A DNA stretch of 64,000 bases from Lytechinus pictus (lineage: Eukaryota). The translations under genes and the position numbers were made by a program. The notes below the pieces were generated by a model. It searched no databases, was not told the origin of the DNA, and saw only the letters and a list, made by a program, of their open reading frames with translations. Positions 1 to 64,000 of this stretch are shown here, piece after piece. Location of the stretch: positions 2,110,001 to 2,174,000 of the forward strand of contig NC_087252.1 in assembly GCF_037042905.1 (NCBI RefSeq), written 5' to 3'. Numbering within the stretch: position 1 is the stretch's first letter; the number at the start of each line of letters is the position of its first letter.

Positions 1-643
1 GGAATCTGACATAAGCATACGGGCCATAATGTTCATCTGATTGGTGTGATGACTTGAGAATATGGATTTTGCAATCATGGAATTTTACGTCAATAAGCTA
101 ATTAGTTTGTTTGCAATACTTAAAAATGACACAAAAAAAGATGATATTTTGTGATTGTGGAAAAAGGAACCCTTTTGTTAAATAAAACAAAAATACGCCA
201 GGTTTTTCTTCATGATCTAAGTGGTTTCAGGTCTACACTAACTACAGTCTGCTTGTTTATTCCGATTTAATAAAAAGAGAAATTTGTGGTACACGATGAT
301 TTCAGGGGAACAACATTAAATATGGTGGATTGTAGTGACTTGAAGGTTCAACAGAATAGTACGTTGTGATGATTTAAAAGTACGAATACAACCTAACTGT
401 CAGAACAAGCCTACATAATATATCGTTTTAATAATGCATGTACTGTATAGGTCCTATTGTACATAGGCATAGGGGGTGGCTAAACAAGGTAAAATCTATC
501 GAATTGTGCCTTGTTTGTCATATTAGACGGTGAATAAATATAAAGATTAGACACAATATATATTTCGTTACTTTGTTCATGAATGTGAATGTACAAAAGA
601 GGCATATATATTATTAAGCACGCTCTAACACGTTTCCTTGCAG

Positions 644-898
644 GCCCTGTATCATTTTATGAACTTAGATCATTAATGTACAACGTGAATACACCTAGCC
701 TAGAGAAGCTAAGAAAAACAATTTGCAAGCTAGACATGCTAGAAGTCGATGCGACGAGTGCAGATAAATTCGGTCCACAACAAATCTACGACTCGCTGTG
801 TCAGTGGAAAGAGGGACACCCTCAGGTAGATCAAGGAAAGATATTACATGATGCACTTTTAAGAGCCAGACATGAGGAAGCATGGTGGAAAATTCTAG
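644..898 (+). CDS. Receptor gene copy 1, death-fold-like exon, type A (A1)
   Basis: tttccttgcag|GC...CTAG|gtaagt; 255 nt, phase 1-1; GPVSFYELRSLMY...LCQWKEGHPQVDQGKILHDALLRARHEEAWWKIL; close paralog at 63342. Confidence 0.85.
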
Positions 899-1190
899 GT
901 AAGTTAATCGTTCAACCTTTATATACATTTTTGTTTTTTTAATTAAATGTCCATATACCGGAATCTCACTTATCAAATATAACACACCGGATTAGTATAC
1001 TGCCATTTCATGTACAAACTCGACAACACAATTTTGACCGAAATTACTCCATCATCGGAGGTTTCATTACCAAAAATCCCACCACACCAATGAAAAATAA
1101 ATAAATGTACTATAATAAATTTAGAAACAGAAGGAACACAAAACAGGCAAATATAATGTAAATACAACAACATGTTCTATCGTATGATCT

Positions 1191-2575
1191 CAGGCGCGTA
1201 GCCAGGGGGGGCGCCCCCCAAAAAAAAACGTCCCCAAAAAGAAAAAAAAAGAAAGAAAAACAAGAGGGGAAAAGGAAAAGCGAAGGGAGGAAAGGGAAGA
1301 AAGGTAGCTTTGTGGGTTTTTTGTATTCTTTTTTTTTTTTTTTTCAAAAGAGAATCTCCTTTACTCTTGCTCTAAATTTATATATGAATTTTGCTTCCGC
1401 GCTGCGCGCGGTTAAATGACAATATTGCAGTTCTCCATTGTTTCCCCCACCTTTTCTCTAAACCTGTTTTTCCACTTCAGCTATATGTGTTTCTTGCCAG
1501 TTAAAGTTCAAATGTGTACATTAGGGCATGGAATTCGAGTAAGGTTAGGCCGAAGTATATGAAGTTACCTTTTTTTAATTCTTTTTTTTTATTGATCGCG
1601 CAACTTATGGTCAGGTCTGCTCCGGGCGGGTAAAATCTTTATATCAATTTCTGCCGTCGCCTCCATATAGGCAACTTCTCCCGCTTTTCAGCTCATTACT
1701 AAGCAATCATAATTTGGGGGGGGGGCAAACAGGTTCCTAATTTAAAAAGAGGAAGGTATAAATTCGTGTCGTATTAAATAAAAAAGTACAATATTTTTTT
1801 TTTCAAATTCTATTAAACTTCCGTGTCATTTCCCTGCACATTCATCTCCTGTTCTTTCTTGCGCACTCAGTTTGAAATTTTGAATGACACTTAAGTTTCG
1901 TTATCATTCAAAATGAAAGCGCTTCAGGATAAGTCAAAGAAATTATACATATCCATTTTAATATAATTTCAATAAATCACATGCAGAAGTTTCAACTTTT
2001 TGCGCACTATTTTCCTTGTAATGAAGTTCAATAATCTTAGAAAATCAATTGAATTAGAGCCGATGGGGTATTAGAGATATCTGCATTTGATGAAACGTCC
2101 ACCCTTTGAAATATCAGAGTTTCATTGCTCTACGCAAGGAGGAATATCTTCCTCCCGGCATATACACTTCTTCTCTGTTTTGCGAGTTAAAAATATGCAC
2201 TGTCGCTAAATTGTTTGTAATCGAATCTGATCTTTCCAAGGGAAGTATTCAATATATTTTAAAGAATGCCCTTTTCTCGGGACCCTTTTCTTTGTAAAAA
2301 AAATTGATAAAACGCTTTAGCTTCCGCGCTTCGCGCGGGGTTATTATTTTAATATCCTCCATTGTATTCCTTTTTCGTGCGTTCACAATGTTCAAAATCA
2401 CAATATAGTCAACTGAATTGGAGCTGATATAGGTACTAGAGACAAGAGAGACGGCTCCTTTTCATTTTAATTTATGAAACACCGAAAGCTTCGCGCTTCG
2501 CGCGCTCTGTAAGTGTTGGCACGCTTCGCGTGCATTTACCGCCCCCTCCAAAATTAAATCCTGGCTACACGGTAG
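1191..2575. mobile_element. TIR element (possibly hAT-like) in copy 1 only
   Basis: CAGGCGCGTAGCCAGG...CCTGGCTACACGGTAG; recurring cgcgcttcgcgcg palindromes; its flanks are contiguous at ~63900 in copy 2. Confidence 0.75.
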
Positions 2576-2760
2576 TATTATGTAGGTGCGATTTTAACGA
2601 ACGAAACATTGTAATTACGTTACGTTATAACAGCCCGTAGGCAGTAGACCTTCTATATAAAAAAAGGCTTATTACTTCCATACAATATGACAATCTACAT
2701 AAACATATATGTTGTTTTTAAAATAGTGAATTAATTTTATGATACATCTTTCCCTTTAAG

Positions 2761-3036
2761 AGCAAAGAAAGGACAAATCAAGTGTATGTGAAAGTATGTT
2801 CAAGAGAATACTCCGTGATATCGAAGACCCAGCAATGATACAGCAGCTCCTGCAAAAGCTAGCCCCAGACTTGGCAAAAGATGTGGGAACCTCACTGGAA
2901 ACAGATTTTATGGAAATAGCCTTGAAAGCACTGAAAGAATGTAATGAAAGTTCTCACAATGAAAATAGGATGATCTTGCTAAGCCGTGCCTTGGAGAAAG
3001 CTAAATGCAAGCCAATTGACAGGACTTTTCTCTCTG
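2761..3036 (+). CDS. Copy 1 death-fold-like exon, type B (B1)
   Basis: tttccctttaag|AG...TCTG|gtaaga; 276 nt, phase 1-1; MFKRILRDI...LLQKL...IALKALKEC...LLSRALEKAKC...TFLS; homologous to exons at 5968 and 62119. Confidence 0.85.
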
Positions 3037-3077
3037 GTAAGAGGTAGTGGATTTAATTCTCTTTCACCCATTTTATT

Positions 3078-4204: not shown

Positions 4205-4453
4205 AAACAATGTCCTTTTTTGAGTTGTGGTCAGTGGGTCATTTCGACTTTGATGCTGGTGTGAAAACGTTACCATTACGTGACGCTTTGAAGGCGATGG
4301 GAATATTTGGTATAGAAGAGACAATTAGTCAGCATGAGCTTTATCATCTTCTTTGTAAATGGAAGGAAGAACACTCTAATTGCGACCAACGTCTGGTGTT
4401 CAAAGTTCATTTGCTTAACGAAGGACTTTACAAGGAATGGGAAAATCTCAGTG
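4205..4453 (+). CDS. Copy 1 death-fold-like exon, type A (A2)
   Basis: ctctaaaatcag|AA...AGTG|gtaagt; 249 nt, phase 1-1; MSFFELWSV...LLCKWKEEHSNCDQ...EW, aligning by eye with A1. Confidence 0.85.
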
Positions 4454-5967: not shown

Positions 5968-6249
5968 ATCTGATGTTTGGAACAGACCGGATCATTTCTA
6001 ATGATACACTGGAACATATCTTGTGGCACTTGAAAACTCCAGGAAAGATCAACCATTTTCTTCATAAGCTGACCAATACCGACCAAGAACCAATACCTGA
6101 AGATTCAAATCTACCAGAGGGCATCGGAATTGCTCTGACTAGATTGGAGCTGTGGAAGAAGGGCCCCATTGATAAACATCCTGTGATTCTATTAAGCGAA
6201 GCGCTGGAGTCGGCAAAGTGCTCTCACGTTGCCATGACCTTCTTTCAAA
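5968..6249 (+). CDS. Copy 1 death-fold-like exon, type B (B2)
   Basis: ccttatttcag|AT...CAAA|gtaatt; 282 nt, phase 1-1; LEHILWHL...FLHKL...IALTRLELWKKGP...LLSEALESAKC...TFF. Confidence 0.85.
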
Positions 6250-6577
6250 GTAATTATATCAAAGAAAGAAGGTTCAGTCTTGTCTATTTATTCAAGCATG
6301 CATTGAGGACATCAGATATCTCATTTGCAAAAACAAGCAAACACAAAAAACGCCTACCGGAGGTGTGTTCCAAGAATATTACATATGAAAAAATTCAGAA
6401 AGTTAAATGAGCAACTAGACCAAAAGCTTCAGTCTCTGTTTTTGGTTGTTCAGCTGCGTTGCGCTTGTCTCTATATCGCTAATTGTTTTGTGCGTCCGTT
6501 CAGAACTTGTCGCTAGCATCGACTGGCCAGGGTATCGAAAATTTTAATCGGAAAACCTTGATAAAAGCCTAACTTAA

Positions 6578-8353: not shown

Positions 8354-8947
8354 AGGGGAATCCAACCCAAATAAATACTTGTTTTTATAAGGAAAAGAAA
8401 AATCAGACAAGTTGATATGTGAAAGTTTGAACAATATTGGACAAACAACAAGAAAGTTATGAATTTTTAAAAGTTTTAAATATTGGTAATCACTATACCC
8501 ATGGAGACTTCAAATTGGCCGCATATGGGATGTCATAGTGATGTAAGGCAAGGACTACTCTTCCATGTACTCCAATACATATTATGGCTAAAATGTCATT
8601 TTTCTCAAAAGTTTTATTTCAAATTATATTTTTCTTTCATGAGGACATAAAACAATATACTACCTGGGTTATATTTAGATTACTGCCCCAGGGAATGGGT
8701 ACTTAGGAGAAAACCACAAATCCCTGATAATAAAGTACATGGCCTATGGGAAAGTTGTCCTTGCCCCTTGTCATAATTTACTTACCCAGTTGCCAATTTG
8801 AAATCTACATAGTATTAGTGATCTCAATTTTAAAACAGCTATAACTTTCTTATTGCTTTTCCGATTTCTTTCAGACTTTCACCATTCTGTTTAATTTATT
8901 TTTCTCCTTCCCAACACAACATTTTATGGCCAAGGCTGGATTCCCCT
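8354..8947. mobile_element. Palindromic MITE with TTAA TSD (Kolobok-like termini)
   Basis: TTAA|AGGGGAATCCA...TGGATTCCCCT|TTAA. Confidence 0.8.
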
Positions 8948-9699
8948 TTAATGATAATTTTGATGCCATAAAAATATTTTTCAGGATCTCATACACACTC
9001 TTTAGGCATGTGAGAACCATAAACCATCATTCACTCATGTCAATCTTAATGTAACACATAACACAAAGGTTATATACTACACATGGTTTAGTGTAATTTG
9101 CCTTTTCACATATAGGTTTTAAGTAGCCAATCAAAATTAGGTATTAAGGTGAAGTCATATCGGCTTTAACTTTTCATCGTACACCTCACCTGTCTAGAGA
9201 GTTTTCTTAAAAACCCATTAAATGAATTTACAGTCTATTTCATGAAAGGGATGGAGGGTGGCAATATTTGAGTTAAACCAGGTGAACCAAATCAAAAGAA
9301 AAAATATAGTCTAAAGTAAACATGTAACAAATAGAGCCACAATAGAAACGCAACGCAATAATATGAGCGAGTCAGGGAAAATAGTTTTGTGCTTATGTAC
9401 CTTGCAAGCAGTGTATTTAATATATAAGACATTTGTTATATGTAGAATCACCTTAGACTCTTCAGTTAGAATTTTTTTTTGTCAAAGACATCCTATTAAA
9501 CATTTGCAAAGCGGCCTTTCCATCTAAGATCATTTTTTGTATGTACATTGTAGATATTATCATACTCAATGTCAGGATATAAATTTAAAACTTTTATATG
9601 AATAGATAAATTTTCACGGGCAAGGCTTTTATTGTAAGATCTTTACAGTGACATTATCAAAATAAATTTTAAACTGAGTCCTTCTTATCCCCCCTTTAG

Positions 9700-9969
9700 T
9701 ACCAGTTTATCTCCAAAAGACTATTGGGGATGAAGAAGTAAGTGAATTCATCCGCAGACTTACGAGTAGGCATCGCAAGCGATTGGCAAACCAGACACCG
9801 GCCACTGAAGACAATAAAATATCCAACTTTGCAGAGGAAAATAATGACATGTTGTTTGATGCAAAATCTATGGTTCGAGACTGGATTGAAAGGGAGCAAT
9901 GCTGCAATTATGAGAAGAGATGTAATCTGGATGACATGTTGATCGAAATTGGTCGACATGATATGACAG
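9700..9969 (+). CDS. Copy 1 death-domain-like exon
   Basis: ccccctttag|TA...ACAG|gtaaat; 270 nt, phase 1-1; ...AKSMVRDWIERE...LDDMLIEIGRHDM fits the death-domain helix 4-6 pattern (MLxxW...LxxxLxxIGRxD). Confidence 0.8.
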
Positions 9970-10402
9970 GTAAATATCCGATCACAAATATTGTGATTGA
10001 CGTATCATATATGTATTTGTGTCACTTGAATAGTCTGTTCTTAAATGAGAAGGACTATCATTTCATTTAATAGTAGCTATTTCCCATCGCGATTGCACAA
10101 ATATTTATAAATATGTGAATTATCACATTTATGGATTTTAAATCTACCTCCTGTTAAGATTAAACTCTCACATTAAAGTAATCTACTTCCCCATAGTGCC
10201 ACATGCAGGTTATTTTATTGTACTGTATACTTCAAATTTGGGAACATAATCATCCTGATTTAAAAATGCACGTCAATAGCTTAGACACTAATAATAATGA
10301 TCATAATGATAACGATAATGATAATAATGATAATGAATAGTGATGATGCAAACGACGACGACAATGATAATTATAATGATAATAATATTTGAAATTATTA
10401 TA

Positions 10403-12836
10403 CGGTGCGCCCCCCCCAAAAAAAAAAAAAAAACTTAACACTCTGAAATGGTTGCCAGATAAAACAAAACCATTACTTTGAGGGAAAGACTTATATATCT
10501 GGAAAGCCAATAAAGTAAACTTTCAAATGACTCAAAACAAGTTGGAAATTTATTCATGTTTGAGTGAACACTGCCCACTTAATAAACCAGGGGCATGACA
10601 ATGAGGCTGGGCAGGAATTAACCTTCCAATTTCTTTCGGTTTTTTTTTGTTTGGAAATTGCAAAGTTGAGGGTTTCGTTAGGGATTAATATGGCACGCCT
10701 ATAGGGAATCAATTCAATATGTATTTCACTTTTTAAAAAAAATTTCTCTTCCACTAAACCATTTCACTCAAAGAAATTTATATTTCACTTTTAAAGATAT
10801 ATTCTACTTTATCAAAGAATGTATTTCACTTAAAAAAAAATGTTTCACTTTTCAAAAAATATGTTTCACTTTTCCAAAAAAAAAAATTCCCTTTTCCTAA
10901 TTAATTTTTCCAAAAAATATTCACTTTTAACAAAATATATATATCACTTTAAAAAAAATATATATTTCACTTTTCAAAAAATATATTTCACTTAAAAAAA
11001 ATATATATTTCATTTTTCAAAAAAATATATTTCACTTAAAAAAAAAAATAAAAAATTCACTTTTCAAAAATATATACTTCACTTTTCCCCCAAAATATGT
11101 TTCACTTTTGAAAAAAATATATTTCACTTTTCAAAAAAAAAAAAAATTTCGAGGAAGAATCATTTCACTTGTTACATTTTAATTTTGAGAGAAAACAAAT
11201 CCTTTCACTTTTGTTGGATAACACATGCGGCTGCCGTATTGGACCGTACGTAAAATTATTTTATCTATCCATCTATCTACCTACTTGATATATCTATCTA
11301 TCTCTATATATTTTGTTTGTGAAATATATATTGTTTGATTCCCTATAGGCGTGCCATAGACTAATGATAAACTGTGATCAGTTTGTTGCTTGAGAAATTT
11401 TCATGAGTTATCGAATTGAAATTTAATCAATGAGTACTCATGCTCATGAATTGCAATTTTTAGTGCAGCATTTCAACTTTATCATGTGGATCTCAGCAAT
11501 GTGTTCATGAAAGTCAGGAGAATAGGGGGTAAGATAGGATTTAAGTAGGTGAAGTACGTTGATGAGATAAAGGTCGACAGAACATTAAGCCACCCCTCCC
11601 TCCATCTCTACCCCTCCACTCCCCCCACACTTCTCTGCTTCTAAGAGACTAAGCTGGGCAGGAATTAGCCTTCCAATTTTTTGAGAGGTTAGTCCTTGGG
11701 AACTTGCAAAGCTAAGAGTGTTATGCTAAATTAATGAGTGAGGTAATTTTTGGTTTCTTAGGCAAATTTTATGAGTTACTAAATTGAAATTTAATGCATG
11801 ACTGAACAAGAATTTCAATTTTAATGTAGCATTTTACGTTTATCTTGTGGACCTCAGCAGTGTGTTCGTGAGAGTCAGAGTAATGTGATGGTTGTACGAG
11901 TTACAAACAAGAGGGCGATATATGGTAATAATTGGTTAAAAGGGCATTCCTTTTCTTTTTTGTTACAAATTACAAATCATATGTCCCCCCCCCCTCAACC
12001 TCCATTTCCCCGGCTCCCTCTCTCTTTGTCTTACATCCTGAAGACTATTCAAAACTTAACTGCCAAGTGACCAGTGGCTGATGGTCAGTTTTTTTCATTG
12101 AATGATTACCATGAAATTGACTGATTGTGATTATTTATGAAATCATTTATTGGAAAAAAAAAATTAATGTTTAATTGATCACATGGCGCATTGAAAGGTT
12201 TATTGATAAATTGTTGATTAAATGATTCAGAATTTATCATTAAATCAACTTTCTGTTCTGGACTTCATTCGTACATGTAATAGCAATCAGTCTCTCAACA
12301 GAAGGGGAGGGCGGGCGGGAGAGAGAGAGAGGGGGGGGGGGCTAAATGTTCTGCTGACCCTTATTTCATCAACCTACTTTCCCCACTTAAGTCCTATCTC
12401 ACCCCCTATTCTCCCGACTCCCATAAACACATTGCTGAGATCGACATGATAAAGTTTAAATGCTGCCCTAAAAAGTATAATTTGTGTTCACTCGCACTCA
12501 TGCATTAAAGTTCAATTTAATAATTCATGAAATTTGCTTAAACAACCAAAACTGGTCACAGTTGATCATGAATTCATCACAACACCCTGAACTTTGGAAG
12601 TTCCAAAGGATTTGCCTTTCAAAATCTGACAGAAATTGGAAGGCTAATTCCGGCCCAGCATAATTTCATACCCTTTGTTTTTAGCAGGCAGTGCTCGCTC
12701 AGGCATGAATAGTTTTCCAACTATTGGTGTCATTGAAAGTTGACTTTATTGGCTTTCATTATGTAGGTGTTTTCCCCAAAAGTGATATATTTTTTTACTT
12801 GGCAGCCATTTCAAAAGTTTTTTTTTGAACGCAATG
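10403..12836. mobile_element. Diverged copy of the same Tc1/mariner-type family
   Basis: TA|CGGTGCG...GAAATGGTTGCC and GGCAGCCATTTC...CGCAATG|TA; internal blocks shared with 40266-50737. Confidence 0.8.
10689..11358. mobile_element. TIR MITE with an internal ~22-bp minisatellite, nested in the 10403 element
   Basis: 24-bp TIR TATGGCACGCCTATAGGGAATCAA; flanks GATTAA/GACTAA; repeated atatttcacttttcaaaaa units. Confidence 0.85.
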
Positions 12837-14199
12837 TATATTTTAATAGAGTGCAACTATTTGTACATATTTTATTGCGCAGCAAGAGTCCCTTATATGT
12901 TATACATAATACCAGAATAAATAGGTTTTTAATTTAGAGTGCATGGAGAATATATCGTCCTAGTCAGGTAGATATGATCGAAATTTCGACATGACCGTCA
13001 AATTGGGTATACATGCAATATTTTTGCTCAGAGTTGTAGTATAGGGTGTATTCTTCAAGAAGCCCACTTGGGGAATTTTTTATATTGACGTCATAAGCCA
13101 CGCCCACTTTTTGGCACAATTTTCTCAATTGTGATTTTTTTTATTTTACATAGTAAACATATCATGTTTGATATCAATTAAATCTTATGACAAATCAAAT
13201 ATAAATATATGATTTATATGGCATTTTGGCCATGTACAGGTCATTTAAATGTCATTTTAAGGTCATAAAAGGACAAATTATGACAAAAAAGGTTATACAT
13301 TATAATAGGGAGACTGTCATGTTCTGAAAGCTTACATAAAGAATATTATTTTTTGTTTTGCTGACGCTTGTAGTCGAGATTGTGTATATTAAAAATCTGA
13401 CAGTTGCCATCTAGGCACTCTGAGGATAGTGTCTTTATTCACATCATAAGCCACGCCCATTTTTTCATATTTCTCTTAATTGCGGCTTTTCTGTTTTACA
13501 GAATAAACATTTGTTTGATTTTGAATTAAATCTTAAGAAAATTAAAAACTAAATACATAAATCTTATGGCATTTAAGACTCGTCAATGTCATTTAAAGGT
13601 CATTACAGGTCGTGAAAGGTCAAATTTGGTCTCAAAAAGTTTTTCACATATTGCAGAACATCTCGTGTTTTAAATACAAAAAAATGAAATATTATATACA
13701 TTGTTACTGAAAGTTGTAGTCGAGGGTGTGTATATTAAGAATTTGATGTGTACTACCTTGTCATCCATGGGCAGTTTTTCATATTTTCTTATTTTAGGAA
13801 CCCTAACCCCAATCCTAACCACTTTTCGCATAGGCATATGTCAAAATTTATACGGAATGCGACATACCGGTATATGAATGAATGAATCTTTATTTCGTTT
13901 CAATTCCGATATTAAACAGCATCAACAGTAAATCATTGCAGTGCAAGTAAATAGCACAGAACAAAATTGAATAATTACAGAATAATATACATAATACATG
14001 CGCTACTTTTTATGGAACATTAGCAACACCCATGAGACAAGATGGAAACAAAACCTGGTGACCTACTTAGAAGATTAGCTTGTGATATGATATGATGTAC
14101 ATGTAACATGGAATAAACATGATCATGTTTGATATCAAATTAGATCTACTGAAAATCATAAATCATACTACTATACAAGATTAGGCATTATGGCATAGG

Positions 14200-42798: not shown

Positions 42799-43013
42799 CA
42801 CCGGTTTGAGATTGATGCAACCCCCTACTACGTCAGAGGACTCCAGCAGGTCAAGAGGATAAGAAGACACTATTAGATATAGGTTATTTTAAGGTTAGAA
42901 GGTAATCTGGTTAAAATAGTCGAAAGAAGTTAAGAAATTATAATTGTATTTTGTAAGAAGTTGTGTTGTTTTCAAAATTGTCATAGATTTCTTTCCCCAA
43001 ATAAACCAGCAGG

Positions 43014-48020: not shown

Positions 48021-48292
48021 ATTTCACTTTTTCTTCTGTCATTTTTCTTTCCATAATGTTGGATATTTACATTTTTCATTTTGGAGATATCAAAACTACT
48101 CAGATGAGAATTTTTGATTGAAGTTTAGGTATAGATTGAAATATTTCATAATAGGAGCATATTGAATAATTTATATGGTAAAAATGCAATTTTTGTAAAA
48201 ATTGTAATGTTTATTTAAAGAATTGAAAAATAATTCTAGGAGAATGAATATTATCAATAATATTGAGAAAATGTTATTTCGTCAGGATGGAT

Positions 48293-50877: not shown

Positions 50878-51225
50878 GGATACGTGGTGATGTCCCTGAT
50901 GATACTGTCTACACCGAGTTGCACAAAGATGTTAATATAGGAGACAGTGCAGTCTTGACATGTCAGTTTCGAGGTTCACCAATGGCTGTGTACTGGAAGA
51001 AAGGCGATGACCCAAGAAGGGCGCCAAACCTTGTATCATGGATTCCTACTGATGACGTCACTGGTAAATGTGAAGGTCAAAGGCCATGTGAGGTCATGGA
51101 GATGAATGAGAACCGTTCCTTGATCATCAAAGAAGTCAGTATGGCCGAACAAGGTCGATATATCTGCAGAGTTTCTAACTACAAGGGGTATCTAATACAC
51201 AACTTCACATACATCAGACTATTTT
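50878..51225 (+). CDS. Copy 2 IgV-like immunoglobulin domain exon
   Basis: tgtgtcatttag|GG...TTTT|gtaagt; 348 nt, phase 1-1; GDSAVLTC...VYW...SLIIKEVSMAEQGRYICRV (B-strand Cys, C-strand Trp, E-x-G-x-Y-x-C). Confidence 0.9.
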
Positions 51226-51906: not shown

Positions 51907-52305
51907 CTCCTCCTATAGAACCATACCCAATCATCAACCAGTGTCAGAGAAAGGAAGGTTCAATAAATTCTACTTCTCCTCCAAAGGGTTGCAGGATTTC
52001 AACCGACACGATTGTAAACATCACATGCTCAGTCTTTGGATTCTACCCGGATATCAACCTGTTCTTCCTTCATGGGTCTTCAAAGGTAACCAATTTTAAG
52101 AGTAATGAGTGGGAAAATAAAGACGGTTCTAAGAACAAAACCATATTAATTGAAGCTAGAGTCAGTGACCGGCCATACGTATGTATTGCGTCAGATATAC
52201 CTGGTTCAACAGAGGAGAGAGCCTGGGAGATATTCATAGATGAGACAACCTCAGCCAATCCCGAGAAAGGTGATGGAAGTAGCGTCACAAATCCCGTAAA
52301 GATTG
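51907..52305 (+). CDS. Copy 2 second Ig domain exon with C1-like motifs
   Basis: atatgtag|CT...ATTG|gtaagc; 399 nt, phase 1-1; hand translation gives VNITCSVFGFYPDINL...ENKDGSKN...YVCIAS; absent from the ORF track in this frame. Confidence 0.85.
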
Positions 52306-52469
52306 GTAAGCAAGCATTAATTAATCGGTATAGAAATGCATTTTCATGTTTTTATTCATTATAGAAACGTTGCATTTGATTTCAGTAATGATTTGTTTGT
52401 CCATTCAAATTATAACTTATTACGAGCCCACAATGCTAACGTGATATAAACTCCAGGCATTGACGTACA

Positions 52470-55400
52470 TTCTCACTTCTTGAGCAAGTCCATCAAGTCC
52501 CTGGTGTAAAATCAATCGCTGTATCAACAATCATACATAGGTTAAATGAGACGAATCGTCAACATGCTAAAGTTGAGGAGGTGAATGACGCAATTAAACT
52601 TTCAGCCAATCAGCGTAGTTGGTCGGTAATCGACAACAGTAATATCGACCATGTCCTCCATCTGAACGCAGATGGCGTACACCTCAATCCGCGGGGAATA
52701 ATTGCATTCGCGAAAAACATCATTCGATTCCTGCGTAACTTGTCACAAAACTATGATGATGCATTCCCACCTTTAAATCATAGCGAATTACCACACTCAA
52801 AAGCTGATCCAGAATTCGCTCCCTATCCCAGAAGTTACTTTTCAATCGATCCTGAACGAGGAAATCAGATGAACCAGCCTCCCCCTTTTCCGTGGAATGA
52901 GTATTATCCGAGGTCTCGACGCAAAGCAGCAAACAGAGAATTTCCGAGAGACTGGGTAGATTGTCTGTCCACGGCAAGGAAGCTCTTGAACTCCAGACAC
53001 CAATAGATAACCCAACAAATGAATCCACTTCAATCTTAGATCAACAACCCACTCAGAAAATTAATTCCGTTGAAAATGATCCGGTGGAACATATGGATAA
53101 TGAATCATTTCCACCCTACGAACCCGAAGGTGGAATCTCTCTGAACAAATGTCAGACAGAAATGAGATCATGTCATATAAAGGAAACGAAACATGGCTTT
53201 AGAATAGCACAATTAAATATAAGAACTTTATTATCAAACATCGACAATCTACAACTTATGGTTGAAGATCTTAAATTAGACCTGATTGCATTGAATGAAA
53301 CTAGATTAAGCAGTGATATAAATGATGAGCAGTTACGCATTCAAGACTTTTGTATTTATAGGAAAGATCGGAATAACAAAGGTGGAGGAGTGGCAGTATA
53401 CGTCAATGAAAATAAGCTTAGCCACAAATTAAGACCCGATCTTATGAACAAGGATATTGAACTTATAGCTACAGAAGTAAAACAACAAACTTCATCGTCT
53501 ATAATTGTTTTGGCATGGTATAGACCACCTGGATCAAGCATTGAATTGTTTAATGTTATTGATAACGTTCTATCAAAAACTGATGAAGAACAAAAGGATG
53601 TCGTATTTTTAGGAGATTTCAATTGTGATATCAGTGGAAACCCATTGTCTTGTTATACAAAACGATTACTTGATATTTGCCAGAATTATTCTCTTACTCA
53701 AGTGATAGACGAACCAACAAGGGTAACTCTTCATTCATCCACGCTCATTGATTTAATTTATACCTCTAACTGTATGAAAGTTGTCGAAAGTGGCGTCCTT
53801 CACATAGGAATGAGCGACCACTCCCTTGTTTATATTGAATGGGGTAAAATCCGGAAACCATCTTCAAAGCATGTGTATAGAACCTATAGAACTTATAAGA
53901 ATTTCGATGAAAATCTTTTCTTTTCTGATCTACAAGCCATCGATTGGCAAAGTGTATATACATGTAGTGATGTTAATCATTCTCTTCTTCAATTCCAAAC
54001 AATATTTTCTTCATTGTGTAATTTTCATGCCCCTATTAGGAAAAGCCGTATTAAGAAACACCGAAAACCTTGGATAAATACTGAAATTATTGATCTAATT
54101 CGTAAACGAGACAAATTGAAAGATAAAGCGACTCGAAAGCGTACGCGCGCAAATTGGAAAGCTTATAGAAAGAGTAAAAATTATGTCACTTACAAAATAA
54201 AGCAAAACAAACGTAAAACATTCCAAAAGAAAATTAAAGATTCAAAAGGTAATGTGAAGAACACGTGGAAAAACCTTAACATATTGATACCACGTAAGAA
54301 TAAAAATACAAAAATTCAATGCTTGATAGTTGATGAGAAAGAAATTCATGAGACTAAAAAAATTTCACAGACATTGAATGATTTTTTCGTAAAGGTAGGC
54401 CCTAGACTTGCCGATACAATCGACAGTACAGGGTCTGCAAATGAAAATAATAATGCATTGCAATATCACCCGCACTCGTTAGTCCATATCTTTCAACTTG
54501 TCCCAGTAACTGTAAGCGAAATAAAGTAAAAATTATTGAAAATGTCTAGTGGCAAAGCGATGGGATGTGATATGATACCAATGAAACTTATAAAGATAGC
54601 GATACCATGTATAACTGAACCCTTGGCACATATTATAAATGTGTCTATTACTACTGCATGTGTACCTACGGAGTGGAAAAAGGCAAGAGTTAGTGCCTTA
54701 CATAAAGGCGGTGTAAATGAACCTTCTAATTTCAGGCCAATTTCGATATTACCTATTTTATCTAAGCTACTAGAACGTATAGTGTTTGATCAATTGTATG
54801 AATACTTGAACAAAAACAATTTGATTAATGACTACCAATCTGGCTTTCGGCCATTACATTCTACAGCAACGGCATTACTCAATACAACAGATGAATGGCT
54901 AAAAAGCTTTGATGAAGGCAAATTAGTATGCTCTGTCATGCTAGACTTAAAAAAAAGCATTTGACACGGTTGATTTCGAATTGCTTATCCAAAAATTAAA
55001 GCAATATGGAATTGGGGATCACTCAATTGAATGGTTTACAAGTTACTTATATGGAAGATGCCAGAAAACGACAGTGCATGGTATATCATCTGATTTATTA
55101 CCCATTAAATCTGGAATCCCTCAAGGGTCCATTTTAGGGCCGCTTCTTTTCATTTTACATATTAATGATCTACATTTAGTTCTTAGAAATTGCAAAATAA
55201 GTATGTATGCAGATGACACTATTTTATATTATGCAAGTAACAACTACTCTGATCTAGAAAACAAAATCAATGAAGATTTGCAAAATGTAAAACGATGGCT
55301 TGATCACAATAAGCTTAGTGTGAATATCAAAAAAACTGAATATATTGTCCTAGGAACTAGAAATCGACTGAAACTATTCAAAGATGAATCGCTAAATATT

Positions 55401-56750
55401 CACATTGATGGAACCCCCCTAACAAGAGTTACCCAGTGTAAACATTTAGGAGTAATTTTAGATGAAAATCTGTCATGGGGAAAACACATTCAAAATGTGC
55501 AGAAGAAATGTAGTAGCGGTTTGTTTATGCTAAAATCGATACGAAGTATGGTTGACAAGGATACAATGATTCTTGTCTATAACGCCCTGATTTCATCTCA
55601 TTTGTCATATTGTGATATAGTATGGGGAAATTGCGGCAAATGTTTAAAAGATAACCTCCAAAAGATTCAAAATCGGGCAGCTCGCGTTATCAATAATACC
55701 GCCTGTGATTCATCCGGAAACGAAAATCTAAATGAACTAAATTGGGATACACTTGAAAAGAAAAGGAATGAAAGTGTTGCAATAATGATGTTTAACATAC
55801 TCATATCTAATCAATAGATTTTCCCTTAAAGAAAGATCACATAACACAAGAAGTGGGAATCTCAATTTGGAAATAATGCAAATAAAGTCTGAATCTGCAA
55901 AGCGCATGTTTATGTACAGAGGCGCCAGTATGTGGAACTTATTACCCACTAATATTCAAGCGGCACAAACGAAACACAATTTCAAAACAGGTCTAAAGAG
56001 ATTATCTGTGTGATATGGATCACAATGACTATTTTTCTGTTTAATTTTCTGTCCCCAGTACATGTATTATTTTCCAACCATTTCATATGTTTTGCTTTTA
56101 TATGGCATGAGTATTAACTATATAAGTTTTATAATTAATTTCAGTGCATGTTTAGTTATGTTTAGTTATCATAAATTTTCCAGACATTTTTGTATGTTTA
56201 GTTTTTATCATTGATAAATCATGACTTGTATTCATTTTCTTGTACTTGTTTGTCCATTATAGAAACATGTATTTACTTTGACATTTTACTTTACCATGTA
56301 CACATTTACTATTACCATGTATGCACCACTTTGTTCCAATTTACCGATAGATATTTCATGTTGTAAATTATTGATGTTTTTGAAAACGGTATATAATTTC
56401 TTCGTCTTTTTCTTACTATCATTATTATTCTTTTTCTTCTTTTCTTATTCTGTTATCTTCTCTATTGTCTTTTCTCTTTTTCGTCTCCCTCTCACTTTTC
56501 CCTTCTTCTTCTTCCTTTTTTTTCTTTTTTTTTCTTCTCCTCCCCTCCTCTTCACGTTTCAATGATTGTCTTGTAATATTTCATTGATGCTCCTTTTCCA
56601 TATATATTGTTCGTTATACACTGATTTTAAAATGTTTACTTTGTCAATTGTATGTTCCACACGGCCCCAATGGAAATCAGTCTGTGAACTGTTTGGGCTT
56701 TTTAACCGTGTATAAATAAAATAAATCTTATCTTATCTTATCTTATCTTA
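52470..56750 (+). mobile_element. Near-complete CR1/L2-group LINE: esterase-type ORF1 remnant and disrupted APE-RT ORF2
   Basis: ORF1 ...DGVHLNPRG (SGNH DxxH block); APE motifs LNET, GGGVA, GDFN, SDH; RT motifs FRPISIL, QSGFR, PQGSILGP, YADD; nonsense codon at 54527, frameshifts near 54955 and 55800; (ATCTT)n tail at 56725-56750. Confidence 0.92.
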
Positions 56751-57577
56751 TATGAGATACATTATGAAATCAACAAAAACTATGCTCTCACAATCTCTAA
56801 AATCGGTGTTGATTTAAAAGATGACCACTAGCATGACAAATTGTCATTGTTGGTTTATTTCATTTTGACTCAACTCAAATATACAACATAGGAAATAATT
56901 ACACAAATATAAAATGATAATCATACAAATATAAAATGATACAAAGGAATAAACACTGTAAGCAATATGACTATACAAGATAAAAAGGCGAGTGTTTATG
57001 GTAAACACTAAATAATGTGACAATCATATTAATCAATAATGATATACACAATGTAGATAAAACTAAATGTAGAACATTCTGAACTAGAAGCCGAACATTC
57101 GAATAAAATAACTAATCTTTTGGAAGTTTAAGTGGCCGTCATATAATTTCCATTTAACTGAATCTAAGAAAAAAAATGACTGTTGTAGAGAGACCCGATG
57201 CCAACTCTCTAAACATGCTAAATGCAAAGGAGCTAATCTGGTGTCTTATCACACTTCTCTCAGAGTGAGATGAGGGACCAGTCCTGATGGAATAACATTT
57301 TAACTTTCAGGAGTTAGTTTATATCTTTTGTTGAGTGAAAGTGTTAAAAGATTCACACTATGAAATCTCATTCCATTGCATTTAAAGAATAGATTTAAAT
57401 CTAGAACTCTTTACTGTTTTGAACGAGCTAGGTCTATATGTCAGAAAGTGTTATATAATCCTTCAGTTATCTGACAATAACTTCAAGTTCAGGGAGTGAA
57501 CAGGTGATATTCCGGTATACATGTACCAAATAAGGGCTGTAATAAAGATATAAAGTCTGAAACCTATTTTCACACAG

Positions 57578-57670
57578 TGGTACCAATCCTACTGATACTG
57601 GCTGTCGCCACGACAGGCATGGCATTCTTGAGACTGAGATCAAGGAAACGGCAGGCCAGACGTTACAAAG
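57578..57670 (+). CDS. Copy 2 transmembrane exon
   Basis: tattttcacacag|TG...AAAG|gttagc; 93 nt, phase 1-1; (KI)VVPILLILAVATTGMAFL followed by basic stop-transfer RLRSRKRQARRYK. Confidence 0.85.
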
Positions 57671-58195: not shown

Positions 58196-58252
58196 TAGGT
58201 AAACGTGATGTCGAGGAGTCAAAGCAATTGGTGCAAGAAATGAATGTACAAG
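58196..58252 (+). CDS. Copy 2 short juxtamembrane cytoplasmic exon
   Basis: gtgtatag|TA (or tag|GT at 58199)...CAAG|gtaagt; phase 1-1; GKRDVEESKQLVQEMNVQ. Confidence 0.65.
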
Positions 58253-58828: not shown

Positions 58829-61800
58829 GGGTTGTCTCTTTTTACCACCTATGGCTACTGGCTTATGGCACTCCAAATGACAAGATGACAAAGGTGTGTG
58901 CTGCCCTCAAAGAGCTTAGTAGTAATAGTCCAGGATAGGCCCCATAGACAAGGGGTCGAACCTTGTTTTTTTAGATATACAATGTTTTTTTATGGTTTCT
59001 TGTCAATTCGAGGGTGCTGATTCCGAATCTGAATGATGCCACTCTTGTAACCTTGAGCATTTTCCGCAAATTGGCAAAATCCAATATGGCCGCCAAAATA
59101 TGCAAATTACCCATGAAAATCATAAAATTGCCAACACATTAGCTATAAAATGCATGTAGTTGTTGTGCAGAAGTGAAATACCAATATGAAAAGCGATATT
59201 TGACAAAATATTTATTTTATTGATATTCAAAATGGCCGCCATAACCCCTGTATACTTTATTATGTAGAATATGAATGGGGAAAATATTTGTTTCAAACAA
59301 GAGCACTATTATTGCATGTGATTGTGACCTGCGAGTGGACTACTGTCTGAAAACATGACTATTAACAAAACTATGTCATTTGTATACTATCTAATGTGAT
59401 AAATGCTGTATTATGATATTCAAAATGGCTGTCATAGACCCCTTATACTGTGTACAATATATAAAAGGGGACAAATAATTTTCACAACCTTTGAATTTGT
59501 TTGACTTTAAAATGCCAATAACTGCGAAATATTGGTGTAACACTGTCTGACAACAAGGATTTCTAACGAAACATATAATTTCCCTTGCAATTTCGGTAAT
59601 TATGCTGCATGTTGACATTCAAAATGGCTGCCATAGGCCCTATCTGTATTATGAACAAAGCGAATGGAGAAACCAATTTTCACAAGAGTAAAAACATTAA
59701 AATGAATGTAATTGTAATCTATACGAGTGAAATATTGTCTAAACACATGATTTCTGGCGAAACATATCATTTCATTTTTCATGCATGAGATAAATGCTGT
59801 ATTGTAAAATTCAAAATGGCCCCTAAGGGCCCTTACAGTATTATCTACAATGTAAATGGGGACAAATACTTTTGAAAGAATTAGGATTTGCCTGACTATG
59901 AAATCCATATAATTCTGTGCTCATTGCCTGACGAAGTCTAGCAGCTTGCAGACGAAACGTCGCTTTCACACTACGTTTGCTACATCGTGAGACAACTGGT
60001 TAATTTCTTCTACTCAAGGAAAATATTGTTTGAAAACGTGATTTTTTTAATGAAATATAATATTTCCTCTCCCATAGGTGATAAATACTGTATTTTGACT
60101 TTCAAAACGGCCGCACAAGCCCCTACAAATTCTGTAATATGCGTATAGGGAAACTAATCATCACCAGAATGAGAACCAAAAACGCACGTAACTATGTGAT
60201 GTATAGGTAAAATTTGGTCTTGAACATGATTTCTGACTAAATACATCACATAATGGTTGAGAAGGTAATGAAATTCAAAATTGCTGCCATAGCCCAAAGT
60301 AGTATGTACATTGTAACTGGGGACAGATAATTTTGACAAAATTTTTACTATGAAAATGGCTTAATTTTGATGTAAGTGTTAAGTATTGTCTAAACCCAAT
60401 GATTTCTAACGAAATATATGATAGCTTGTGTCATAAAGGTGATGAATGCAGCCTTTTAAAAATGAAAAATGGCCGCCATAGTCCCTTATCTTAATATGTA
60501 AAATTTGAATGGGGAAAGATAATTTCCACAAAGAAACATATTGCAGCCATTTTGAAATTTAAATATAGCATTTATCACCTAAATAACATAAGAAATGATC
60601 TATTTGGTTACAAAATCATATTTTCAGACGATATTTCACTCATACATGCAACACCAGTTAGTCAAGCAAAGCCAAATTCTGTTAAAATTATATGTTCCCA
60701 TTCACAAAGTACATAATAGGCCTACCGTTAGGGCCTGTAGCGGCCAGTTTGACTTTCAAAATACATTATTTATCACCTACCTGGCAGAATGAATGGTATA
60801 TCTTGTTAGGAATTATGTTTTCAGACAATATTTTACTCTTAAATCACAATTATATGCATGTTATGGTGCTGACTCATGTGAAAATTGGTTTCCCAGATCG
60901 ATTGTACATAATACAGTCAATGTCTTTTGGCGGCCATTTTGAAAGTCAAAATACAATATTTAACACAAATATGAAACCCGAATAATATATTTCGTTGCAA
61001 ATTATATTTGAAGACAGTATTCCACTAATTTACCACAAAAAAATACGTTTTAGTGCTCACCTTGTAATTGTTTTTGTCCTCTCTCACATCGTAGATCATA
61101 ATTTTAGGGCCTTTGGCGGTCATATTAAATATCAAAATACAGGGTTTATCACGTACATGGCATGTTAAATAATAAATTTCGTTAACAATAATGTTTTTAG
61201 TCAGTATTCCACTCGTTTATCTCAACAAAATGCATTTTAGTGCTCACTCTTGTGATTTTTTTGTGTCACCATTCACATTGTACATAATAGTGTTAGGGCT
61301 TTTGAAGGCCATTTTGAATATCAAAATACAGGATTTATCACATAACTGACATAACAAATGATATATATCGTTAGCAATCATGTTTACAGACATTGCTTCA
61401 CTCATAGATCATAATTACTTGCATTTCAGTGCTAAATTTTGTAAAAATTAATTTTCCCCATTCATATTGTACAGGGGTCTATATGATGGCGGCCATTTTG
61501 ATATCAAGAAAATAAATATTTTGACAAAAATCATTTTTTCAGATATTATTTCACTCCGGCAGCACAATTGCATGTACTTTAAAGCCAATGTGTGGACAAT
61601 TTTATGATTTTCATGGGTAATTTGAATATTTTGGCGGCCATATTGGATTTTGCCAATTTGCAGAAAATGCTCAAGGTTACACGAGTGGCATCATTCAGAT
61701 TCGGAATCAGCACCCTCGAATTGACAAGAAACCATAAAAAAACATTGTATATATAAAAAAACAAGGTTCGACCCCTTCTATCCTGGACTATAAGGACGCC

Positions 61801-61939
61801 GGGGAACAAATAGAAAGAAGTCGTGTGTACGATGTTCTGTGTAAATGGAAAAATAAATCTTACGCACCCGACCAACCACAGATGTTGAGAATTGCGTTGG
61901 AGGTCGTGAACCTTGAGAGTAGATGGCAAGAGATCTGTG
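58829..61939 (+). pseudogene. Copy 2 first death-fold-like exon (type A0), split by a DNA transposon; coding parts 58829-58925 and 61794-61939
   Basis: attaacag|GG; GVVSFYHLWLLAY...LKELSS / KDAGEQ...VYDVLCKWKNK...DQPQMLRIALE...WQEIC G|gtaagt; removing 58926-61793 restores an 81-codon in-frame exon; as it stands, TAG at 58936. Confidence 0.85.
58926..61790. mobile_element. Foldback-type non-autonomous DNA transposon, TAG...CTA termini, 3-bp TAA TSD
   Basis: TAA|TAGTCCAGGATAG...CTATCCTGGACTA|TAA; >300-bp TIRs; interior of ~180-bp units that switch orientation near 60500. Confidence 0.92.
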
Positions 61940-62118
61940 GTAAGTAATTTTCTTCCATTTTATATTAAAATTCAACATTCTAAATTTTCGAAAAATATTA
62001 CCCTTTACCATGTGTTTTCCACGTGTTTCGTTTTGTTCGATACATTTTATGTGATCAAAAACATTCTTTGGGCTACAAAACAAATGTATAAATTCGTTTA
62101 TATTTCTTTACAAATCAG

Positions 62119-62559
62119 ACCAAGTACGTCAGGTCAATGATTCTACCAAAGTACCTGAGGGAATATTCGAACAAATCCTGCTTGACTTAAAAGGCAAAAA
62201 AGCAATTAAAAAATTCCTTAAAAACTTGGTTCAACACGAAAACAAAGATATAGAAACTGAGACAATCAATGACACCCATGACGGTGAAGAGGAAAAGGAA
62301 GAGTCTGCAAGTAAAGGGGATAACATGGACATGGACAAGTCAGCTCCCGTCAAAGAAATCAGAAATGATTGTAAAGGGAACAAGGAAAACTCAGCTCCCG
62401 CCAATGTCATTCAGACAACTGAAGGTACAGCCTACATGGAAGCCATGCGAAATTTGAAGGAATGGAATAAAGGCCCTTTCAAACACAATCCGTTTGTTCT
62501 AGTTAGTCTAGCCCTCGAAAAAGCAGGGTATCACCATATCTCAAAGACCTTCTTTGACG
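62119..62559 (+). CDS. Copy 2 death-fold-like exon, type B (B0), with a long charged insertion
   Basis: tacaaatcag|AC...GACG|gtgagt; 441 nt, phase 1-1; IFEQILLDL...FLKNL [insert] AMRNLKEWNKGP...LVSLALEKAG...TFFD. Confidence 0.85.
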
Positions 62560-63341
62560 GTGAGTCTCTTTCTATTTGACATGTAAGTTACAACTAAAAT
62601 GGTTCGCTGATAAGGTTCATCCGATTGGTGGGATGACTTAAAATAATCACCATATCTCAATGACCTTCTTTGATGGTGAGTCTCTTTCTATTTGACATAT
62701 CTGTTACAACTAAAACGGTTGATCTGATTGGTGTGATGACTTGAGAATATGGTTTTCACAATCATGGAATTTTACTTCAATAAGTTCATTAGTTTTCGTT
62801 TGCAATCATTAAAAATTACCTCCAAAAGATAATGTTGTATGATTTTGGAAAAATAACTATGTTCTTAAAAAAAAAACATACACTGTAATCCAGGTTTTAC
62901 TTCAACAACAGCGTCTTCGTGATCTTAGTAGTTTCAGGACTGCACTAACTAGTGCCTGCTTGTTTATTCCGGATAAATAACATGAGTGGTTTATGGTATA
63001 TGGTGATTTTACGGGTGCAACATTTAATATAGTTGGTTGTATTGACTTGAAGGTTCAACAGAATAGCACGTTGTGATGATTGACAAGTCCGAATGCAACC
63101 TGTAATGGTCGGAAGAAAGCTACATTATACTACCATTTTATCAAGAATCTATGGTCCTATAGCGATGAATAAACAAGGAAAGATATTTTGAATTAGGTAT
63201 TTGTCATTATTCCACGGCCAGTTTTGCACGTTAGACTTGCGTATATTTGGTTTTTGCTATGTTGCCCTTTAACATGTTGAATATGAACAAACTTTAGAAA
63301 GGCATATAGGATTTACCATGGTCTAACACATTCCCCTGCAG

Positions 63342-63593
63342 GTACTGTATCATTTTATGAGCTTAGATCATTAATGTACAACGTAAATACACCTAGCCTA
63401 GAAAAGTTAAGAAAAGCAATCCGCGAGCTAGAAATCGATGCGACGAGTGCAGGTAAATTCAATCCACAACAAATCTACGACTCGCTGTGTCAGTGGAAAG
63501 AGGGACACCCCCAGGTAGATCAAGGAAATATATTACATGATGAACTTTTAAGAGCCGGGCATGAGGAAGCATGGTTGGAAATCCTACTTTCAT
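63342..63593 (+). CDS. Copy 2 exon A1, paralog of 644-898; 3' boundary uncertain
   Basis: cccctgcag|GT; long identical peptide stretches with copy 1; canonical donor missing, weak phase-1 gtacca at 63594, otherwise stop at 63616. Confidence 0.75.
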
Positions 63594-64000
63594 GTACCAG
63601 TATTTGTTTTTGCTAATATAATTGAACATTATCCTAGGACATTATATTAACACGAAAATCCCATGTACCTGAATATGTATTTCAACTTGTATAAGACACC
63701 TGATTGGTCTGCTGCCCTTTTCATGTAATAACTCGACAGTCATCAAAATGTTGACCAAATTACTTCATCATCGGTGAAGGTTGCAATACAAAAATCCCTC
63801 TCTCTACCCCAATAAAAAAACATATATATACTAGATTCAGAAACGGGAAGAAAACAAGACAGGCAAAAAGAATGTAAATTCAACAAGTTCTATCGTATGT
63901 TCGAGGTGCAATTTTAACGAATGAAACCTTTTAATACGCCATTATGACTGTTACAACAGCCCGTAGGCAGTAGACCTTCAATTAAAACAAGTTTATTACT

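Follow-up and report, generated by a model that had tools for sequence, protein, structure and literature searches.

The question raised by this locus is what kind of gene is repeated in it, and what has become of its copies. The window, i.e. the whole analysed stretch of 64,000 nucleotides of Lytechinus pictus DNA, contains the 3' half of one gene (copy 1) and the 5' half of an adjoining paralog (copy 2). A preliminary description had proposed a head-to-tail multigene cluster, repeated with a period of about 62.7 kb and evolving by birth and death. The duplication is real, and the two copies are neighbouring head-to-tail paralogs. In self-BLAST, positions 31-1189 align on the plus strand with 62718-63902 (72.9% identity in 1,238 columns, bit score 666, E reported as 0.0), and 2584-2676 with 63904-64000 (81% over 100 columns, E 6e-16), which confirmed both alignments claimed before. 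The differences reported for exon A1 were also recovered (a 3-codon indel and 12 replacements in 81 codons), as were the end of copy 1, whose last exon closes with TAA at 27952, and the beginning of copy 2, whose first coding exon starts from ATG at 34857 and is 74% identical to the N-terminus of the paralog P0002. The fixed period, on the other hand, found no support. There is a single copy-to-copy distance, and the offset of 61.3-62.7 kb changes across an insertion in copy 1, from 62,687-62,698 bp on its 5' side to 61,320 bp on its 3' side, so a strict 62.7-kb repeat was rejected. This 1.39-kb insertion (1190-2583, unstranded), seen as a gap between the two self-matches, has short inverted ends, lies in an intron of copy 1 and does not occur in copy 2. 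The offset is largely filled with transposons; about 20 kb of transposon and repeat DNA occupies the introns and exon A0 of copy 2. A Ty3/gypsy LTR retrotransposon in intron 1 (41180-49896, plus strand) has LTRs 99.6% identical, a GTAT target-site duplication and one open reading frame of 1,671 amino acids, and a LINE retrotransposon in intron 3 (approximate bounds 52464-56760, plus strand) encodes endonuclease and reverse transcriptase in a frame broken into pieces.

High heterozygosity is typical of sea urchins, and it might be supposed on this ground that the two copies represent unmerged haplotypes or an assembly artefact. We regard this as extremely improbable and rejected it. The introns of the two copies are 80.8% and 82.3% identical, against 91.1% in the exon, which corresponds to about 18-19% intron divergence, and 40 indel events were counted in 904 bp. 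In exon A1, dS is 0.18, dN 0.071 and dN/dS 0.40. Intron identity of 81-82% together with this dS indicates paralogs rather than haplotypes. Moreover, the IgV domains of the two genes are only 46% identical, transposon content differs between the copies, and two more distinct receptor heads exist. The preliminary description had made its reading depend on Ig and transmembrane exons lying upstream of the window; those of copy 1 are present there in the RefSeq model XP_063959098.1.

What is duplicated is a predicted type I receptor, composed of a signal peptide, an IgV and an IgC domain, a transmembrane (TM) helix, and up to 12 helical modules encoded on phase 1-1 exons. The copy 1 gene model has 1,726 amino acids, in which hydropathy alone, with no dedicated predictor, reveals two hydrophobic regions, near residues 10-20 and 280-290; by hydropathy and from the copy 2 exons, the arrangement is a signal peptide and one transmembrane helix followed by basic residues. 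In the window, copy 1 contributes 12 canonical phase 1-1 exons, all on the plus strand, which join in frame into an open stretch of 954 amino acids. These are A1 (644-898, a module of type A, with the death fold assigned by homology, AG/GT bounds and a 100% match to P0001), B1 (2761-3036, type B), A2 (4205-4453), B2 (5968-6249), C (9700-9969, death-domain-like), D1 (22336-22416), D2 (23071-23307, module D, weakly death-fold-like), E1 (24218-24331), E2 (24695-24937, module E), F (25431-25721), G (26545-26814, whose donor at 26814 reproduces P0004) and the terminal exon H with the stop codon (27657-27952). The G-H joint was seen in one contig of run X1, whose record names no library or tissue and which was compared with positions 8600-28500 of the window; contig depth cannot rank genes. 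The gene has three A-B pairs, compared with one in P0016 and P0011, and the tail would have grown by duplication of this exon pair.

The extent of the transcript deserves separate consideration. In three copies RefSeq treats head and tail as distinct genes, with three models of each, an intron of 12.4 kb separates C from D1, and the reading frame past the B2 donor, open in copy 1 until a stop near 6410, is kept in three paralogs; P0002 and P0003 end, according to RefSeq, in this read-through. One could thus imagine two adjacent genes, a receptor whose last exon is B2 or C and a separate cytosolic multi-death-fold adaptor (D-H). However, exon C is common to the head P0001, which splices B2 to C, and to the tails P0005 and P0006, which begin at or inside C and run from C through D1 to H, and P0004 begins within the splice acceptor immediately preceding D1. 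The reading frame continues through all 12 exons, and two homologs are unsplit: P0011 of Strongylocentrotus purpuratus spans IgV to D, and P0016 unites IgC-TM-A-B-C-D-E-F-G-H in one model in the order found here, with 23-46% identity in 12 of 13 segments compared (E2 was misplaced). The two-gene arrangement therefore seems improbable, and from the overlapping models and the unsplit homologs we infer a single transcript from the signal peptide to H. Short isoforms ending after B2 may occur alongside the long form.

For modules A and B, a death fold is predicted from a good model of a homolog. The AlphaFold2 model of P0014 (31-row alignment, pLDDT 81.7, pTM 0.71) contains six-helix bundles superposing on DD, DED, CARD and PYD structures in the VIA comparison, and 46 of the 50 top VIA rows carry titles of such proteins. 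The best VIA Z is 10.0 for module B (rmsd 2.9, 89 aligned) and 9.0 for module A (rmsd 2.0, 74 aligned), values which in helical bundles, being below about 13, can reflect a common arrangement. In the Atlas comparison A1 gave TM 0.66-0.77 in 8 of 10 rows. The prediction is weaker for C (Atlas TM 0.57-0.72; Pfam Death E 7e-4, under the cut-off) and for E (Pfam Death E 4e-4 for P0004 188-231, under the cut-off; hhalign to A, E 1.6e-4), and weakest for D, F, G and H, which link to A/B at E 0.002-0.07 in profile comparison. The profile links A-B, A-E, G-H and F-G reach E 2-4e-4, as against E of at least 0.16 in 18 Ig control pairs. Direct searches were negative at their thresholds: Pfam Death (PF00531, gathering cut-off 22.6 bits) scored at best 20.9 bits among the 6 cluster proteins and 19.0 among 27 relatives, and Foldseek returned nothing at E 0.001 or better with either the P0014 model, for which vFLIP was the top row (E 0.21), or the A1-C model of the window. 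Sequence and profile searches of the PDB found no significant death domain (5 and 3 weak rows, one death-domain protein at E 3.5). The window's own A1-B1-A2-B2-C gave a poor AlphaFold2 model with 3 rows (pLDDT 43.6) and no death-fold match in Foldseek or VIA. Split gene models, together with module scores that all stay under the Pfam cut-off, have kept the family hidden in databases.

Copy 2 follows the same plan on the plus strand, up to the point where its tail is interrupted. Its exon 1 with the signal peptide (34857-34956) is 74% identical to residues 1-35 of P0002 and has the donor GTATGT. The IgV/I-set exon (50878-51225) matches Ig_3 (1e-9), I-set (1e-9) and V-set (2e-6), all above the Pfam cut-offs. 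The second, C-type Ig exon with the stalk (51907-52305) is 90-91% identical to P0002/P0003 and gives C1-set only at E 0.12. The transmembrane exon with a basic stop-transfer sequence (57578-57670) and a juxtamembrane exon (58199-58252) come next. Exon A0 is split into a 5' part (58829-58925) and a 3' part (61791-61939, frame open, donor GTAAGT) by a 2,865-bp terminal-inverted-repeat element (58926-61790, unstranded) with a TAA target-site duplication and nearly identical outer arms; the frame runs into the insertion, where a stop follows within a few codons. Exon B0 (62119-62559) has a 74-amino-acid loop, and just after it a short stretch comprising its 3' end and donor is locally duplicated. 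Exon A1 (63342-63616) is without the donor used by copy 1, and its frame stops at 63616. The last stretch, homologous to the intron at 2584-2676 (63904-64000), ends about 85 bp before the expected start of B1. Judged from these exons, two lesions, the transposon with its stop inside A0 and the lost A1 splice donor, likely cut off the signalling tail, and copy 2 has likely lost it recently and would be either dying or making a membrane-bound receptor without signalling modules.

Whether copy 2 still functions, be it as a decoy without a tail or through splicing that bypasses the insertion and uses an alternative donor after A1, is harder to judge; we consider it possible, though not the favoured reading. 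The bypass could run from a GT donor close by in A0 to an AG at the element's right end. The signal, Ig and TM exons with their splice sites are intact, the Ig exons are 90-91% identical to those of P0002/P0003, the 834 bp of exon past the insertion are free of frameshifts (neutral evolution since the split predicts about 12), and the dN/dS of A1 given above fits the same reading. Yet recent lesions explain the open frames equally well: aligned with each other, the element's outer arms show one gap and a single mismatch in 108 positions. The identity of A0 to paralogs which share 84-91% among themselves is no more than 63-66%, word-based homolog searches found no database protein with the copy 2 tail, and a stop codon followed by many introns, as here, likely triggers transcript decay. 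The window would then show a paralog that had lost its tail not long before. The two lesions fit the 'death' half of birth-and-death evolution. With two adjacent copies, one of them damaged twice, and at least four related heads and three tails in L. pictus, the multigene cluster proposed earlier is supported in part, as head-to-tail paralogs with a damaged copy and not in its fixed period. The preliminary description mentioned neither the death-fold character of the tail nor the lesions of copy 2 nor the IgV mosaicism described below.

The first Ig domain places the family in the Ig superfamily: in copy 2 it scores 39.1 bits with Ig_3 (cut-off 30) and 28.6 with V-set (cut-off 26), and P0001-P0003 behave likewise, whereas the second reaches the C1-set E value quoted above. 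The relatives correspond to uncharacterised L. pictus RefSeq models (LOC135154838/841/842, LOC135154971/972/5022 and LOC135155674), and six models, three heads and three tails, all lie on a contig of 42,376,555 bp; copy 2 was not found among the family models. Further relatives occur in L. variegatus, S. purpuratus and Diadema antillarum, and those named to species are sea urchins in every case. Word-based homolog searches gave the L. pictus cluster only (3 matches each); the other relatives came from a full HMMER scan. The models are annotated as uncharacterised or Ig-like, are mostly fragments, and carry no death-fold call.

Protein identities in IgV include both divergent types and near-identical pairs. 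Between the copy 1 gene and its three paralogs, identity is 46-48% in IgV and 63-87% in the A and B modules, while P0002 and P0003 share a nearly invariant IgV (98%), and one IgV type is 75-81% identical to that of P0011, across Lytechinus and Strongylocentrotus. Such near-identity is unlike the hypervariability of a classic arms-race receptor. For IgV, a clade uniting the four L. pictus genes fails the AU test (p 0.007), and the IgC tree keeps it at 100/99; the AU groups were named after the trees had been seen, and the comparison rests on about 110 columns and long branches. As duplicate or partial rows, P0034, P0035, both P0023 pieces and window rows identical to P0001 were left out of one tree, and P0034 of another. 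The conflict suggests exchange of IgV exons between paralogs. Rate differences or long-branch attraction could produce the same picture: the IgV branches of LOC135154838 and S. purpuratus LOC105438439 were flagged as long (0.74 and 0.32), the alignments have 7-8 rows and 115 columns, and some rows, which represent models predicted on older assemblies, could be chimeric. We find this rather unlikely, as raw identities conflict even without those branches: copy 2 and P0011 share 75% in IgV and 45% in IgC, P0011 and P0013 99% and 51%, and P0011 and P0028 58% and 77%. In the window, moreover, 681 bp separate the two Ig exons of copy 2.

As to function, we favour, with some confidence, a paralog pair of a predicted sea-urchin Ig receptor, likely with up to 12 death-fold modules recruiting adaptors and most likely serving innate immunity. 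Ligand-driven clustering would allow the cytoplasmic death-fold chain to recruit death-domain adaptors, so that the protein would signal in the manner of a death receptor that brings its own scaffold. The immune role is likely, and has to be weighed against a non-immune one of the same architecture, in adhesion, guidance or dependence signalling (UNC5- or p75-like) or in self or gamete recognition, where tandem death folds might act as a scaffold or brake. The PDB sequences nearest to the IgV exon are Robo1, LRIG1, neurofascin, CD276 and contactin, although these adhesion and guidance matches are short generic stretches; the conserved IgV type shared with Strongylocentrotus and the presence of UNC5H2 and p75 death domains among the fold matches point the same way. 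Against this, Pfam found no ZU5, UPA, TSP1 or cysteine-rich repeat, and lineage-restricted multi-copy expansion, variable modules, mosaicism and damaged copies, all paralleled here, are typical of the urchin immune families TLR, NLR, SRCR and Trf. We therefore hold a non-immune role unlikely. A bolder reading of the immune role, which is doubtful and offered tentatively, would be a new receptor class with exchangeable IgV exons, a built-in polymer of up to 12 death folds, truncated decoys and a module number tuned by exon duplication; if true, one receptor would carry its own signalling platform. Adaptive immunity is absent from urchins, which possess numerous unassigned Ig genes, and for variable recognition an Ig receptor that combines swappable IgV exons with a direct death-domain signalling route would make a concrete candidate. 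Tandem duplication is ordinary in an urchin genome; it is the duplicated receptor type that is unusual, and its value depends on the function, here predicted.

We know of no described receptor joining Ig domains directly to a long death-fold array, and such an arrangement is apparently undescribed: literature searches found no paper on the family (0 papers by six locus identifiers), although supplements of earlier urchin Ig/death-domain gene surveys may list its genes. Among known systems, the death receptors of the TNFR superfamily (TNFR1, Fas, DR4/5, p75NTR) are likewise type I membrane proteins with a cytoplasmic death domain, and module B of the predicted model superposes on the death domains of TNFR1, FADD and RIPK1 at VIA Z 8.8-9.3. 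They possess cysteine-rich repeats and one death domain, however, in place of two Ig domains and up to 12 death-fold modules, and membership was rejected by the absence of these repeats in Pfam (TNFR_c6, no match at E up to 1 in P0001-P0003). UNC5 netrin receptors, with the architecture Ig-Ig-TSP1-TSP1-TM-ZU5-UPA-DD, also carry, on a single polypeptide, two Ig domains, a TM segment and a death domain, and the UNC5H2 death domain matches module A of the predicted model at VIA Z 6.5. The present family differs in its tandem array, its multiple copies and its occurrence, so far, in sea urchins only; TSP1, ZU5 and UPA gave no Pfam match in P0001-P0006, where helical modules account for the tail, and UNC5 membership was rejected on this basis. 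NLR or Ig-NACHT membership was similarly rejected, Pfam having found no NACHT domain in P0001-P0006 or 27 relatives. Adjacent death folds in one chain are known from the tandem DED of caspase-8, cFLIP and vFLIP and from the 2CARD of RIG-I, and vFLIP is the best match of module A (at the Z of 9.0 given above); these are cytosolic pairs, unlike the membrane receptor considered here, and the A-B pair, taken whole, does not fit onto them (rmsd 17-18 for both modules together). Within the echinoderms, AjNLRC4 of sea cucumber is, as far as its description goes, a membrane receptor with extracellular Ig domains binding microbes and an innate-immune signalling domain (PMC8699970). The likeness, drawn from that description, lies in an echinoderm membrane receptor coupling extracellular Ig domains to innate-immune signalling, which AjNLRC4 achieves via NACHT and with two TM segments, whereas the family described here has one TM segment and no NACHT match, and would rely on its chain of death-fold modules.

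The gene's front is supplied by copy 2, the downstream paralog, whose exons were observed in the order signal peptide (34857-34956), IgV (50878-51225), IgC (51907-52305), TM (57578-57670) and juxtamembrane (58199-58252), followed by the cytoplasmic helical modules A0, B0 and A1. Its back is supplied by copy 1, which opens the window with 12 exons, A1 to H, having AG/GT ends throughout and phase 1-1 until the terminal exon. Spliced in silico, these exons give a 954-aa open frame that starts as the sequence of P0001, the RefSeq head model of copy 1's gene, and ends as that of the tail model P0004; with the first 772 residues of P0001 added, a 1,726-aa product is obtained. The division of heads and tails into separate RefSeq models is likely to be an annotation artefact, because B2 is spliced to C in P0001, the tail models P0005 and P0006 run on from C to H, and a single model from a different contig, L. 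pictus LOC135155674, reads IgC-TM-A-B-C-D-E-F-G-H. One contig of run X1 joins G and H with the junction falling precisely on the splice sites and differs from the window in two letters, giving VLRG, as in the paralog P0006; with the kind of run unrecorded, it hints weakly at splicing of a transcript from a paralog or allele. The frame also stays open for about 53 codons past the B2 donor (6250-6410), and the conservation of the first 19 or so in P0002 and P0003, the other two head models (LOC135154841 and 842), suggests a short isoform ending after B2.

Exon A1 of copy 1 matches at 100% a part of XP_063959098.1 (P0001; Lytechinus pictus LOC135154838), and the paralogs LOC135154842 and LOC135154841 were found with the same exon; a search with exon G gave three further models (LOC135154971, 972 and 5022). 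All six list one longest contig, of 42,376,555 bp, and adjacency is shown just for copies 1 and 2 in the window. Copy 2 is a fourth head, its Ig exons being 90-91% identical to those of 841 and 842, yet distinct from both. The preliminary description had aligned the two copies, and self-BLAST recovered this match as two same-strand segments, 31-1189 against 62718-63902 (72.9%) and 2584-2676 against 63904-64000 (81%), separated by a 1.39-kb insertion in copy 1; the reported difference in exon A1 likewise stands, as a 3-codon indel and 12 replacements. Over aligned columns, identity reaches 80.8% and 82.3% in the flanking introns and 91.1% in exon A1 (dS 0.18, dN 0.071). Allelic difference in urchins amounts to a few percent, and divergence so far above this level identifies the copies, on their sequence, as paralogs. 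The proposed period of 62.7 kb had to be abandoned: the copies are offset by 62.7 kb ahead of the copy 1 insertion and by 61.3 kb beyond it, and this distance is not meaningful as a period because one gypsy, one LINE and one inverted-repeat element, together with a repeat block, make up about 20 kb of copy 2. The duplication itself is ordinary.

Among these repeats, the Ty3/gypsy element (41180-49896) is very young, with LTRs 99.6% identical, a single 1,671-aa ORF and a GTAT duplication; it is nested in an older repeat, the flanks 40541-41156 and 49898-50739 matching two halves of 11363-12838. A repeat of about 1.5 kb with internal inverted structure occurs in three copies (11362-12818, 33248-34768 and 40262-50741), one of which ends about 90 bp upstream of the copy 2 start codon and could influence its promoter. 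Another element (37736-39214), with 249-bp inverted arms at 95% identity, is enclosed in a larger block that has short inverted arms at its ends (35466-35532 and 39930-39992). Intron 1 of copy 2 holds a tRNA-Tyr(GTA) gene or tRNA-derived repeat (39461-39546, + strand; Rfam 53.7 bits; ARAGORN), and decayed LINE reverse-transcriptase-like fragments appear in the ORF lists at 14553-15173 (C-D1 intron) and 29500-31030 (between genes).

Copy 2 carries two lesions. Exon A0 is interrupted by a 2,865-bp element (58926-61790) that has terminal inverted repeats, is marked by a TAA duplication and introduces a stop within a few codons, and in A1 the donor is absent and the frame closes at 63616. Both look recent, since the element's outer arms hardly differ and no frameshift occurs in the exons after the insertion (against about 12 expected if neutral since the split, a rough figure from one intron alignment). 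Copy 2 may be a pseudogene, a decoy or a splice-rescued gene. In its exon B0, the 3' end has been duplicated together with the splice donor as a 75-bp direct repeat (62530-62720; 116-bp spacing, 92%).

The ectodomain is the most divergent part of copy 1's gene relative to the paralogs, identities being 46-48% in IgV, 58-61% in IgC and 63-87% in the A and B modules. Compared with P0011, the S. purpuratus homolog, copy 2, 841 and 842 are 75-81% identical in IgV and just 42-47% in IgC. With groups chosen after the trees had been inspected, and two long branches, the AU test rejected monophyly of the four L. pictus genes for IgV (p 0.007) and, for IgC, where they form a clade at 100/99, the IgV grouping (p 0.0003-0.0004); exchange of the IgV exon between paralogs is thus likely, short of proof owing to these features of the test. 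Such exchange would stay frame-neutral because intron phase is uniform.

Death folds in the tail are predicted from models. None of the modules reached the Pfam Death cut-off, and sub-threshold matches occur in five of six cluster proteins (E 4e-4 to 9e-3). The A-B pair of L. pictus LOC129267156 (P0014) was modelled at pLDDT 81.7 with a 31-row alignment; on comparison with 48,161 chains, 46 of the 50 top rows were DD, DED, CARD or PYD by title, the others being three unnamed chains from large complexes and one designed protein. Best matches were 2of5_H (Z 10.0), which we take to be the PIDD death domain, TNFR1 (9.3) and FADD (9.2) for module B, and vFLIP (Z 9.0) for module A, values in the range where the tool advises caution with helical bundles, so that the assignment draws on the consistency of the match list rather than on Z height. 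Atlas agrees on A1 and C, with feature scores below 0.9 that make these leads only, and D to H show weak links to A, B or one another. Module-by-module fold and profile evidence therefore leaves six modules well supported (A0, B0, A1, B1, A2, B2), two moderately (C and E) and four weakly (D, F, G, H). One A-B pair is present in P0016 (the unsplit LOC135155674) and P0011, three in the cluster genes here and several in Diadema P0007. In trees, the A1, A2, B0, B1 and B2 modules from the different cluster genes each fall together according to position, strongly supported in every case and somewhat less so for A0 (94/86); therefore, the A-B triplication is older than the gene duplications. In the four heads compared, P0001-P0003 and copy 2 (62119-62559), B0 is interrupted by an acidic loop, low in complexity and partly repeated, that measures 279, 224, 91 or 74 residues.

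The full HMMER scan gave 28 related proteins, 18 of which were looked up, and all 12 relatives with a named species were sea urchins (L. pictus, L. variegatus, S. purpuratus and Diadema antillarum). The near-identical 636-aa tails of L. variegatus LOC121419694 and 729 (P0027 and P0035) share a contig with LOC121419726, and the S. purpuratus accessions XP_011670889 and XP_011670892 (P0011 and P0031) are close in number, which suggests clusters in other urchins too.

The mode of action of the death domains of TNFR1, Fas, PIDD and MyD88 is established. By analogy, ligand binding at IgV would cluster the receptor, and its tandem modules would then nucleate adaptor assembly leading to NF-kB or caspases. 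A role in adhesion or guidance is a real rival to one in immunity; we favour the immune role because of the lineage-restricted expansion and because AjNLRC4, an Ig receptor of echinoderms reported to bind microbes (PMC8699970), sets a precedent. In the open-access literature searched, a scope outside which the main 2006 urchin immune-gene papers fall, no description of an Ig/death-fold receptor family was found. This architecture places the receptor outside the TNFR, UNC5 and NLR families, all three of which were considered for membership. Its predicted likeness to death receptors lies in the mode of working.
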